The notes below the pieces were generated by a model. It made no database searches. It worked only from the letters and a program-made list of their open reading frames with translations, and was not told the DNA's origin. Shown in pieces: positions 14,124 through 31,462 of a DNA stretch of 64,000 bases (position 1 is its first letter; each line of letters opens with the position of its first letter). The position numbers and the translations under genes are program-made. The stretch is from NCBI GenBank assembly GCA_965203445.1, contig OZ241883.1, positions 160,001 through 224,000 on the forward strand, written 5' to 3'. Source of the stretch: Candidatus Oxydemutator sp. (lineage in GTDB: Bacteria; Pseudomonadota; Gammaproteobacteria; Poriferisulfidales; Oxydemutatoraceae).

Positions 14124-14199
14124 TGGAGCGGGAAACGGGGTTCGAACCCGCGACCTCAACCTTGGCAAGGTTGCGCTCTACCAACTGAGCTATTCCCGC
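14124..14199 (-). tRNA. tRNA-Gly (GCC)
   Basis: GCGGGAATAGCTCAGTTGGTAGAGCGCAACCTTGCCAAGGTTGAGGTCGCGGGTTCGAACCCCGTTTCCCGCTCCA on the minus strand. Confidence 0.98.
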
Positions 14200-14258: not shown

Positions 14259-14325
14259 CTGCTTCGGGAACGCCCGCGGGGGCGTTCCCTTACCTTTCAG
14301 GGGCGCTCATGGGGCGTTTCCTCGC
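14259..14325. repeat. REP-like palindrome, copy 1, plus a degenerate tandem copy
   Basis: GGGAACGCCC-GCGG-GGGCGTTCCC at 14266-14289; near-identical to the reverse complement of 40915-40982. Confidence 0.8.
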
Positions 14326-14503
14326 CTCGGGTTGCTATCAGGCGAGAGGGTGACTCCGCGTCGCACTCGAAGTGCGTGCCACCTGCATTCGGATAAGGTG
14401 CTGCGGCTGACCCCGAATGCGCCTTGGGTTGCAGACAAGCCGTGTTTGTCCCAGAATAGTAGGGGAATTATATATCTAAATCTACAGAATAGTGGTGAAG
14501 TAC

Positions 14504-14531
14504 TTGATTTTCTATAGGAATATGGTATGAT
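14504..14531 (+). promoter_or_regulatory. Putative sigma70 promoter of tnpB (extended -10)
   Basis: TTGATT-16 bp-TATGAT with TGn extension, ending 5 bp before GTG 14537; no Shine-Dalgarno visible. Confidence 0.55.
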
Positions 14532-14536
14532 GTTTT

Positions 14537-15769
14537 GTGATGAAAGTCCATAGAACAATCCGGTATAGGTTGCATCCTGGTACGCAGGCCAAAGCCCGCA
14601 AGTTGGCGGGATTGGCGGGGGCGTGCAGGTTTGTATGGAATCATTTCGTAGGGAAGTTAAGGGACGAATATCTGGCATATGGATGCTGTAAGCCTTGGTA
14701 TTTTACATTGGGCAAGCAGTTCACTCTGTTACGTCGCCACTGTGAACCCTGGTTGCAGGAATACTCGGCCAACATAGTAAAGGCATCTTTGAAACAGTTG
14801 GAAACGACGTACAAGCAGTTTTATAAGAAAGAGGGCGGATTGCCGAGGTTCCATGCAAAATATATGCATCCCGATAGTTTTCCCTTGGTGACGGGGACGT
14901 TCCATCTGAAAGGCCGTTACTTGCACATCGCCAAGATAGGCGAGGTGCTGTTGCTTGGCCACTATCCCTATCCGGACGGCGTGCCGAAGTCCGGCGCGGT
15001 CAAGCGGGAATGCGGCAGGTGGTATGCGTATATCACGTATGAAGTGGAACAATCCGAAGCATTGAAACCTGTAAGAGAAGTCGGCATAGACCGCAACGTC
15101 GGTCAGGTAACATTATCCGACGGGACGATGTATCGTATGCCGGATACGGCAAAACATGAACGTCGCGTCAGGCGTTATCAGAAGAAGATGGCCAGGCGAC
15201 AGGGGCCGAACCGCAAGAAAGGGATCAAGGCGTCGAACCGGTGGAAGCGCGCACAGTTGCTTCATCAGAAGGCACAGGCCACGTTGCGACACGTCAGACG
15301 GAATTGGTGCCATGGCGTATCGAGGGAAGTGGCCGATAAATACTCCCTTGTGCACCTGGAGCAGTTGAACAATCCAGGGATGACAAGAAGCGTCAAGGGA
15401 ACAAAGGAGAAACCCGGAACCAACGTTCGCGCGAAGAGCGGCTTGAACCGCGTGATCCTGGCGTCATGCTGGGGCAAGTTTCACCAGTGCCTGGACTACA
15501 AGACGAATACGAATTACATAAACCCTGCATACACAAGTCAGACATGCAATAAATGCGGGAACGTAGATAAAGAAAACAGAAAGACGCAGGCGGCGTTTAT
15601 TTGCACCGCTTGCGGTCATCGGGACAATGCGGATGTAAATGCCACATCGAATATATTGGCCTTCGGGAATGGGGCTACTGGACGTGGAGGCGGCGAGGTT
15701 ACTCGGCCTGTGAAGCGTCAAATGGATACCAGAAATCAACAAGAAAGTCTTGTAGATTTAGGTATATAA
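14537..15769 (+). CDS. tnpB: RNA-guided endonuclease TnpB
   Basis: N-terminal YRLHP...AGACRFVWN; RuvC-I VGIDRN, RuvC-II HLEQLN, PAYTSQTCNKCG...CTACG zinc ribbon, RuvC-III NADVNA; D-E-D intact. Confidence 0.95.
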   Translation: MMKVHRTIRYRLHPGTQAKARKLAGLAGACRFVWNHFVGKLRDEYLAYGCCKPWYFTLGKQFTLLRRHCEPWLQEYSANIVKASLKQLETTYKQFYKKEGGLPRFHAKYMHPDSFPLVTGTFHLKGRYLHIAKIGEVLLLGHYPYPDGVPKSGAVKRECGRWYAYITYEVEQSEALKPVREVGIDRNVGQVTLSDGTMYRMPDTAKHERRVRRYQKKMARRQGPNRKKGIKASNRWKRAQLLHQKAQATLRHVRRNWCHGVSREVADKYSLVHLEQLNNPGMTRSVKGTKEKPGTNVRAKSGLNRVILASCWGKFHQCLDYKTNTNYINPAYTSQTCNKCGNVDKENRKTQAAFICTACGHRDNADVNATSNILAFGNGATGRGGGEVTRPVKRQMDTRNQQESLVDLGI

Positions 15770-15774
15770 TTCCC
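15658..15774 (+). ncRNA. Candidate omegaRNA/reRNA scaffold overlapping the tnpB 3' end
   Basis: Nested hairpin GACG..AGGC..CGAG-GTTA-CTCG.GCCT..CGTC (15681-15719) followed by TCAA; position is typical of TnpB guide scaffolds; boundaries inferred. Confidence 0.45.
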
Positions 15775-16032
15775 AATAGTAGAACATCCCATTGGCGTTC
15801 GGCGCTTGTCGCCATGGGCTTCCATACGGTTTGCACAGGAAGCTATTTTACGCAACCCTGGGACGCGGTAGCCGACGTGCTTTATCTGCACTTCGGCTAT
15901 CTTTTTGTGGCCAGGATATTGGCCAGTACGTTTCTGGCCCTATACAGAGTAATCCGCGCCGAATAGTGGTAGTCTTTGCGCCATGGGTTCGTCGCGGATT
16001 TCACAAGCCCGTGCGAGGATCACCTATACGGG

Positions 16033-16103
16033 GGCTAGTTGGCAGAGTGGTTATGCAGCGGCCTGCAAAGCCGTGTACGCCGGTTCGATTCCGGCACTAG
16101 CCT
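16033..16103 (+). tRNA. tRNA-Cys (GCA), CCA not encoded
   Basis: GGCTAGT...GCCTGCAAAGC...GGTTCGATTCC...ACTAGCCT cloverleaf. Confidence 0.95.
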
Positions 16104-16136
16104 TCACCCGCACCGTCGCCGGCGACGGCGAAAAAC

Positions 16137-16220
16137 GGGGACGTGGCGGAATTGGCAGACGCTTTGGACTTAAAATCCAATGGCTTGAGAGCCGTGCGGG
16201 TTCGAGTCCCGCCGTCCCCA
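16137..16220 (+). tRNA. tRNA-Leu (TAA), CCA not encoded
   Basis: GGGGACG...TTGGACTTAAAATCCAA, long variable arm, GGTTCGAGTCC...CGTCCCCA. Confidence 0.95.
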
Positions 16221-16239
16221 CCGCTTCGGCGCACCGCCG

Positions 16240-31374: not shown

Positions 31375-31462
31375 GGGAAGTCCGTGGTCGTGCTCGCTTT
31401 TGCGGTGCGTGTAGTGTAAAGTATATAACTCCCGCAGTGAACGACTCGCTACAGTCAATCCG

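Follow-up and report, generated by a model that had tools for sequence, protein, structure and literature searches.

How does a gene for the RNA-guided nuclease TnpB travel when it is enclosed by ends of the DDE type and has no transposase beside it? Elements of the IS200/IS605 group lack terminal inverted repeats (TIRs) and insert next to a fixed tetra- or pentanucleotide without producing a target-site duplication (TSD). The question is raised by a cassette in a stretch of 64,000 nucleotides of Candidatus Oxydemutator sp. (contig OZ241883.1, positions 160,001 to 224,000), which we refer to as the window. The element is 1,312 bp long, carries an intact tnpB as its sole gene, lacks a transposase and is bounded by TIRs and an 8-bp TSD. 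We conclude with considerable confidence that it is a non-autonomous cassette of the IS1595 (DDE) family in which a TnpB/omegaRNA module has replaced the transposase, that it is moved in trans, and that its RNA scaffold has become fitted to the transposon ends, with a flank-encoded guide and homing as the presumed consequence.

The tnpB cassette, its copies and its relatives

The two TIR arms are 24 nt long and 96% complementary (23/24, repeat finder). Searched with at most three mismatches, the 24-mer occurs within the window only at these two arms (two matches were reached in 0 of 100 shuffles), and 15 times genome-wide compared with 0 for a control pattern. The octamer AATAGTAG is present in exact form on both sides and directly adjoins both arms, as read from the sequence. 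The only long open reading frame (ORF) inside the element is tnpB itself, and no transposase was found there. Its G+C content is 47-56%, compared with 63-71% in the neighbourhood. The first-pass annotation of this locus had described the 23/24 inverted repeats with their exact 8-bp duplication, a single tnpB with an intact D-E-D triad and zinc ribbon, and the lack of an internal transposase. These observations held up under the repeat finder, the mismatch search and direct reading, in comparison with ISDra2 TnpB and with the other copies described below, and in the ORF content of the element.

The encoded protein matches the Pfam families OrfB_IS605, Cas12f1-like_TNB and HTH_OrfB_IS605. It scores 200.5 bits with the NCBIfam model guided_TnpB (cut-off 100) and 143 bits with IS200_TnpB, which is below the cut-off of 425, and it matches ISDra2 TnpB (8h1j, 8exa) over the full length (E ~3e-16). 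Comparison with other copies places the likely start at the ATG at 14540, and translation stops within the right TIR, 5 bp short of the terminus. None of the 13 genomic copies departs from the RuvC residues D185, E275 and D363, which line up with the GVD, E and D-x-D motifs in ISDra2 TnpB; in the zinc ribbon, C337, C340 and C359 are invariant among these copies and C356 is nearly so. Ratios of nonsynonymous to synonymous substitution (dN/dS) between copies are 0.09-0.21 in the protein body, which indicates that TnpB is under purifying selection.

These copies come from the 2.38-Mb, 100%-complete genome to which the window belongs, where a protein search returned 18 tnpB matches, of which 13 are close to full length and uninterrupted by stops. 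TIRs of about 24 bp starting with GGGAAYTAT enclose all 13. The two ends of a copy agree at 19 or more of 24 positions in 12 cases, and at 14 of 24 in the remaining one, owing to a 2-bp deletion. Perfect 8-bp TSDs flank eight of the copies, no two of them alike; in four others the flanks match at 6-7 of 8 positions, and in one at 4 of 8. In every copy the tnpB stop lies 5-19 bp from the right end. Protein identity to the window copy ranges from 64 to 96%, and the family is thus old and comprises several sub-lineages. The outer 12 nt of the TIR are near-constant across the copies; the inner 12 nt vary by sub-lineage, yet within any one copy the left and right ends agree.

A scan of one genome per species recovered 76 further loci, in uncultured Gammaproteobacteria, Arenicellales, 'Porisulfidus', Oxydemutatoraceae and one Opitutales record. 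Eighteen short or truncated loci were dropped and 58 near-full-length ones were examined. Identity over the best segment spans 46-79%; among full-length matches it is mostly 50-61%. At 38 of the 58 loci, GGGAATTAT-like 9-mers lie on both sides within 200 nt. TIRs matching at 18 or more of 24 positions were found within the same distance at 27 loci, 12 of which have perfect 8-bp TSDs and 17 of which match at 6 or more of 8 positions. A wider search around the other 31 loci yielded six further perfect TSDs, and extra loci contributed five more. A metagenome scan for relatives returned four loci, one of them with clear TIRs and a TSD. The occurrence of homologues with GGGAATTAT-type TIRs and 8-bp TSDs in other genomes shows that tnpB has moved with these TIRs many times. 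A single landing of tnpB in a pre-existing miniature inverted-repeat transposable element (MITE) derived from IS1595, with the composite immobile ever since, is scarcely credible: tnpB-less MITE-like derivatives with the same ends do exist (for example at genome positions 113341-113503), but this account is contradicted by 13 copies with distinct TSDs, by dozens of relatives elsewhere at 50-61% identity with the same architecture, and by the co-variation across sub-lineages of the inner TIR with its pairing partner in the RNA, which needs long joint evolution.

Several derivatives and variants of the cassette were also seen. The MITE-like element just mentioned is 163 bp long, has 30% G+C and TIRs of the same family, and lacks a clean TSD; it was considered as a stand-alone omegaRNA and rejected, having only the TIRs in common with the cassettes and no RNA scaffold. 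A 786-bp cassette at genome positions 247602-248387 has an internal deletion, retains the C-terminal 225 codons of tnpB and intact TIRs, and has no matching TSD; it may reflect a deletion or a recombination of two copies. Four Arenicellales variants (L057, L064, L077 and L109) are 1.8-1.9 kb long. Their extra ~0.6 kb resembles a decayed partial duplicate of tnpB, which lies inside the element about 0.55 kb upstream of the intact gene. In another copy, the 3.6-kb element L061, a nested 525-aa transposase-like ORF, apparently of another family, has inserted in that upstream part (267-1844). Elsewhere in the window, a weak solo TIR match (31410-31433, minus strand; 18/24, ends TATATAACTCCC) lies in G+C-rich DNA and could be an end remnant or a chance match.

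A partner transposase and the known TnpB systems

A same-ended element that does encode a transposase is present in the same genome. It is 2,616 bp long (genome positions 1978350-1980965; locus L036, 1001-3616), has the TIR GGGAATTATATACTTAAATCTACA and its own 8-bp TSD ATCAGAAA, and its TIR matches the left arm of the window element at 22 of 24 positions and the right arm at 23 of 24. The 314-aa transposase contains DDE_Tnp_IS1595 (PF12762, 1.3e-43) and Zn_ribbon_IS1595 (PF12760, 1.6e-07) domains and scores 205.9 bits with the NCBIfam IS1595 model NF033547 (cut-off 75). It was the only match in a PF12762 profile search of the genome; a second IS1595 transposase fragment is 42% identical and covers less than half of the protein. 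The 2,616-bp element thus appears to hold the only intact transposase candidate in this genome. The nearest annotated plasmid homologues are labelled 'IS1595 family transposase' and reach at most 44% identity. Judged by its ends, then, the window element shares its TIRs and the size of its TSD with an IS1595-family element, and it is probably mobilised by a transposase encoded elsewhere in the genome. Such an enzyme would recognise the 24-bp TIRs and make staggered cuts 8 bp apart in AT-rich targets. Four cassettes (T1, T2, T12 and T13) share the inner TIR of the resident transposase element.

The same pairing recurs elsewhere. IS1595 transposase homologues were detected in all five other genomes tested, with best matches of 43-64% identity in four of them and a partial match of 48% in the fifth (G005). 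Two IS1595 transposase elements in other genomes have GGGAATTATATACTTA... TIRs (23/24) and perfect 8-bp TSDs. Among the elements resolved in this and other genomes, none holds both a transposase and tnpB. With the IS1595 family, then, the system shares the two-domain architecture of the partner transposase (Zn_ribbon_IS1595 and DDE_Tnp_IS1595), 24-bp TIRs, an 8-bp TSD and the carriage of passengers by some members. It differs in that the window element has no transposase and that its cargo is an RNA-guided nuclease whose RNA appears to use the TIR. The ends GGGAATTAT fit GGnnatTAT, which we take to be the consensus of the ISNwi1 group, and the cassettes may belong to that subgroup. The partner element has a passenger of its own, a 436-aa N6/N4 DNA methylase with a C-terminal HNH domain (Pfam N6_N4_Mtase 5e-50, HNH 6e-12), the HNH part of which gives weak, sub-threshold matches to IscB/Cas9 HNH models.

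The protein belongs to the same family as the TnpBs of IS200/IS605 elements (IS1341 group), including ISDra2, with which its catalytic D, E and D align. The window element nevertheless has TIRs, like all 13 copies, and 8-bp TSDs in place of asymmetric hairpin ends, and a Y1 TnpA match is lacking in its genome. Y1_Tnp (PF01797) gave no match in this 100%-complete genome, in a search that did not extend to IS607-type serine recombinases; the control search was positive in six of 14 reference genomes. It is most improbable that the cassette is an ordinary IS1341-type tnpB-only element moved by a Y1 TnpA, with an inverted repeat and duplication that are coincidental or represent subterminal hairpins: a TnpB typical of its family (full-length match to ISDra2 TnpB, E 3e-16; IS200_TnpB 143 bits, though the cut-off is 425) and a hairpin at the right end are set against TIRs in 13 of 13 copies, eight differing perfect 8-bp TSDs among them and 33 independent perfect TSDs overall, the missing Y1_Tnp, a hairpin confined to the right end (26/33 versus 3/33 elements) where IS200/IS605 requires one at both, and the enclosure of an IS1595 transposase element by the same TIR. 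The first-pass annotation had proposed an RNA-guided nuclease captured by a non-autonomous DDE cassette and mobilised in trans, and it had pointed to what might accompany such a cassette. The proposal is supported by the TIR- and TSD-bearing copies, the same-ended IS1595 element and the absence of a Y1_Tnp match. Sister copies with TIRs of the same kind are indeed present (13 of 13, with eight perfect and distinct TSDs), as is an element that encodes an IS1595-family DDE transposase (TIR 22/24 and 23/24, own 8-bp TSD), and homologues at 50-61% identity carry GGGAATTAT-type TIRs with 8-bp TSDs. The annotation had also been cautious about novelty, and rightly so, for DDE-associated and solo TnpBs with inverted ends are described by Altae-Tran et al. 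(2023, PNAS; PMC10691335).

The general kind of element has thus been in print since 2023. The main text of that study distinguishes six DDE-associated TnpB branches, DDE-1 to DDE-6, each of which has inverted terminal repeats. Usually no more than 250 bp separate the 3' end of tnpB from the transposon end, and some solo tnpBs are flanked by ends that hardly differ from those of an element with a transposase, which points to mobilisation in trans (PMC10691335). The cassettes described here resemble these in their TIRs, in the proximity of the tnpB 3' end to the terminus (here 5-19 bp) and in the solo copies with the ends of a transposase element, and differ from them, as far as that text describes them, in that transposase and tnpB always occupy separate elements among those resolved. 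The only family named in the main text is IS630 (DDE-6), and the term 'IS1595' occurs 0 times in it. A recent review lists ISL2, IS630 and IS1031 and regards the association of TnpB with DDE transposons in prokaryotes as rare (Kojima, 2026; PMC13565253). Literature searches for TnpB with IS1595, or for IS1595 with RNA-guided systems, returned nothing on the subject as judged by title or the start of the abstract, and a search for ISNwi1 returned nothing relevant by title. The lineage of the window element may be one of DDE-1 to DDE-6.

The RNA scaffold at the right end

If the cassette moves as an IS1595 derivative, what becomes of the RNA that TnpB requires? We aligned the last ~120 nt of 42 elements (11 from this genome and 31 from others) and found strongly conserved blocks within the tail of tnpB. 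Four helices are supported by RNAalifold and by pair counts: 93.1% of cells are paired compared with 79.5% in shuffles, double-sided changes number 87 compared with 21.3, and none of 500 shuffles scored as high. When the partners were slid along as a control, pairing fell from 93% to 25-47%. Besides the terminal hairpin, three helices covary, up to ~110 nt upstream and within the coding region. In this tail synonymous change is reduced (dN/dS 0.4-0.9), which fits constraint at the nucleotide level. An Rfam scan of positions 14300-16000 at a permissive threshold identified no family, the one match being a chance-level snoRNA (19 bits, gathering threshold 65).

The terminal hairpin is formed with the TIR itself. 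In 26 of 33 elements, at least 10 of the 15 inner-TIR nucleotides at the right end pair with upstream sequence, compared with only 3 of 33 for the left end; this specificity for the right end points to an RNA feature and not to a symmetric feature of the DNA. From one sub-lineage to the next, the upstream hairpin arm changes along with the inner TIR. We regard this as direct evidence, at the level of sequence, that the transposase-recognition sequence and the guide-RNA scaffold share nucleotides at the right TIR. The putative omegaRNA would be fitted to the ends of the element, with the inner right TIR serving as the 3' arm of its last stem. As in ISDra2, the predicted scaffold takes in the 3' end of tnpB and stops at the right boundary, and the guide presumably comes from the flank.

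The terminal ATTCCC probably pairs with the upstream GGGAAT loop as a pseudoknot, to judge by the way the loop follows the terminus in variant elements: GGGAAC with GTTCCC in T11, GGGACT with AGTCCC in L074 and GGGATT with AATCCC in L077. Such a fold would resemble the pseudoknot that adjoins the guide in other TnpB RNAs. Yoon et al. (2023, NAR; PMC10711439) describe Fanzor1 and Fanzor2* in eukaryotic transposons with TIRs and TSDs and with RNAs that incorporate the TIR and the TSD. The predicted layout is consistent with two others set out there: IS607-type TnpB RNAs have a pseudoknot next to the guide, and Fanzor RNAs include the TIR. A different view of the right-end hairpin, as a transcription terminator or a DNA structure that regulates the transposase and forms no part of a guide RNA, draws on the fact that hairpins are common near the ends of insertion sequences, and a stem can indeed be read beside one TIR of the partner element. 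We consider this view very unlikely. The hairpin is followed by ATAATTCCC instead of a T-run and has three more covarying helices with it, up to ~110 nt upstream in the coding region; synonymous change is reduced in the tnpB tail; and the design agrees with that of Fanzor RNAs in TIR elements (PMC10711439).

Guide, flank motif and a possible homing role

Because the predicted scaffold ends at the terminus, the guide should start with the duplicated 8 bp and continue into the right flank. Transcription past the right end would then yield a guide composed of the TSD and flanking DNA. For each of the 13 putative 16-nt guides in this genome, its own junction is the only perfect match; the window 16-mer (15775-15790) is unique in the genome and has ATTCCC directly before it. 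The cassettes share with Fanzor1 and Fanzor2* the form of a non-autonomous TIR element with a nuclease as the sole gene, and differ in being bacterial where Fanzor is eukaryotic. The Fanzor TSD is described as short and fixed and as joining the scaffold, whereas the TSD here is 8 bp long and variable, and must for that reason belong to the guide (PMC10711439). In contrast with IS200/IS605, the guide would begin with this variable TSD, and the target-adjacent motif (TAM) would not be set by the cleavage site of the transposase.

We compiled the flanks of 33 independent insertions with perfect TSDs (eight from this genome and 25 from others). In the main group of 27, the base immediately left of the TSD (position -1) is G in 22 and A in five, while the mirror position to the right (+1) is C in five of 27 (Fisher p = 7e-6). 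A divergent subgroup, the six long elements of one Arenicellales genome, has T at -1 in six of six, preceded by A in five of six. C is found at -1 in 0 of the 33 sites. A purine at -1 without a mirror on the right side suggests a TAM. An orientation-specific motif is predicted if an insertion must have a TAM to be kept or spread, unlike the outcome of a DDE reaction on near-identical ends.

The TIRs, the TSDs, the movement of many copies, the same-ended partner element, purifying selection on TnpB, the covarying helices and the asymmetry of the flanks are observations; the acting transposase, the actual ends of the RNA, the guide, the TAM and homing are inferred. These features can be assembled into a mechanism. 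The target of TnpB would be an allele without the element, whether never occupied or vacated, in which the left flank places a TAM ending in a purine immediately 5' of the TSD. At an occupied site the guide match is preceded by CCC, and TnpB would therefore leave it uncut. Cleavage would favour re-copying of the element through homologous repair. The TnpB/omegaRNA module may on this proposal be a parasite of IS1595 whose TIRs serve at once as transposase substrate, stem arm and pseudoknot strand, with a TSD-first guide, a purine-ending TAM and empty-allele homing on behalf of a bacterial, TSD-making DDE transposon. The flank motif would then be a footprint of drive, and drive would explain the presence of 13 tnpB cassettes for one transposase element in this genome. 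As a whole the proposal is tentative, and we regard it as possible rather than probable.

Several observations weigh against the picture as drawn so far, both for mobilisation and for homing. At least six types of inner TIR half occur over the 13 cassettes, and the resident transposase element corresponds to one type only. The nine cassettes other than T1, T2, T12 and T13 have differing inner TIRs and no matching transposase in this genome, and may be immobile or stranded there. The variety could mean that the transposase is tolerant, that most cassettes are stranded or that they arrived by transfer. To our knowledge, the chemistry of IS1595 transposition has not been established. In the pseudoknot, 93% of cells are complementary but the columns are near-invariant, so that 186 of 500 shuffles reach the same level and the test has no power; four rows (L037, L063, L072 and L084) have an uncompensated mismatch. 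The flank asymmetry could reflect an end-specific preference of the transposase instead of a TAM, and the transposase-bearing insertions with perfect TSDs number three, too few to separate the two. No empty-site joint (14462 to 15783) was present in the contigs of two DNA runs, which derive from one sample and give fragmented cover; a look through the public runs turned up no RNA run. Finally, Kojima argues that a homing nuclease would contribute little to an element whose excision creates a double-strand break by itself (PMC13565253).

That last argument also speaks for an alternative, namely that the cassette is mobilised by a DDE transposase but TnpB does not serve homing, being cargo with another role (for example regulation or conflict between elements) or neutral, and that the left purine is a target preference of the transposase. 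After cut-and-paste excision, which leaves a break by itself, a homing nuclease would be less useful (PMC13565253), and IS1595-lineage elements here do carry unrelated passengers such as the methylase-HNH protein. Even so, we think this alternative unlikely. The RuvC triad is invariant and TnpB appears to be under purifying selection in all copies; the predicted scaffold ends exactly at the terminus, which is the geometry that reading a guide out of flanking DNA needs; the flank motif is asymmetric relative to the orientation of tnpB (p as above) and differs between the two TnpB subgroups, an asymmetry that a symmetric-ended DDE reaction does not predict; and the cassettes exceed the transposase element by the ratio given above.

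The features of the locus are collected in Table 1. The cassette lies inside a tRNA cluster, with tRNA-Gly on one side and tRNA-Cys and tRNA-Leu on the other. Read depth in public contigs peaks at the tRNAs alone.

Table 1. Features of the tnpB cassette and its surroundings (window coordinates).
Feature	Position	Strand	Basis or remark
tRNA-Gly(GCC)	14124-14199	-	Upstream of the cassette
Candidate TAM position, left flank CCCAG 5' of the TSD	14450..14454	+	Suggested by the flank motif
Left TSD copy, AATAGTAG	14455..14462	.	Direct reading; 8-bp TSD by script
Left TIR, IS1595-type end, begins GGGAATTATATA	14463..14486	+	Repeat finder, mismatch search
tnpB, RNA-guided nuclease, 410 aa from GTG 14537	14537..15769	+	ORF, Pfam, NCBIfam, copy comparison
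OmegaRNA-like conserved structured RNA, overlaps the tnpB 3' end	15655..15774	+	42-element alignment, RNAalifold; 5' limit provisional
H1	15661-15664 with 15671-15674		Loop GGGAAT at 15665-15670
H2	15681-15685 with 15715-15719		
H3	15689-15691 with 15706-15708		
Terminal hairpin	15726-15765		
Right TIR; inner 15 nt are the 3' arm of the terminal RNA hairpin	15751..15774	-	Repeat finder, hairpin comparison
Tail ATTCCC	15769-15774		Complementary to the H1 loop GGGAAT
Right TSD copy, AATAGTAG	15775..15782	.	Direct reading; script
Putative guide-encoding flank, TSD and next 8 nt	15775..15790	+	Suggested by the scaffold ending at the terminus
tRNA-Cys(GCA)	16032-16105		Downstream of the cassette
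tRNA-Leu(TAA)	16137-16222		Downstream of the cassette

This locus contributes a natural system of 13 intact cassettes in several TIR sub-lineages with one partner transposase and no Y1 enzyme found, together with evidence for nucleotides common to the TIR and the guide-RNA scaffold and a candidate TAM that is legible in the flanks of the insertions. In this system the sequence recognised by a transposase and the scaffold of a guide RNA can be seen to co-evolve on the same nucleotides. TnpB is thought to earn its keep by restoring elements that excise without a scar, such as IS605 and IS607. Its presence in DDE transposons is a puzzle, as these make TSDs and probably leave breaks at excision, and Kojima regards the association as rare (PMC13565253). 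The genome of this Oxydemutator is a compact natural system in which to ask how TnpB benefits a DDE element.

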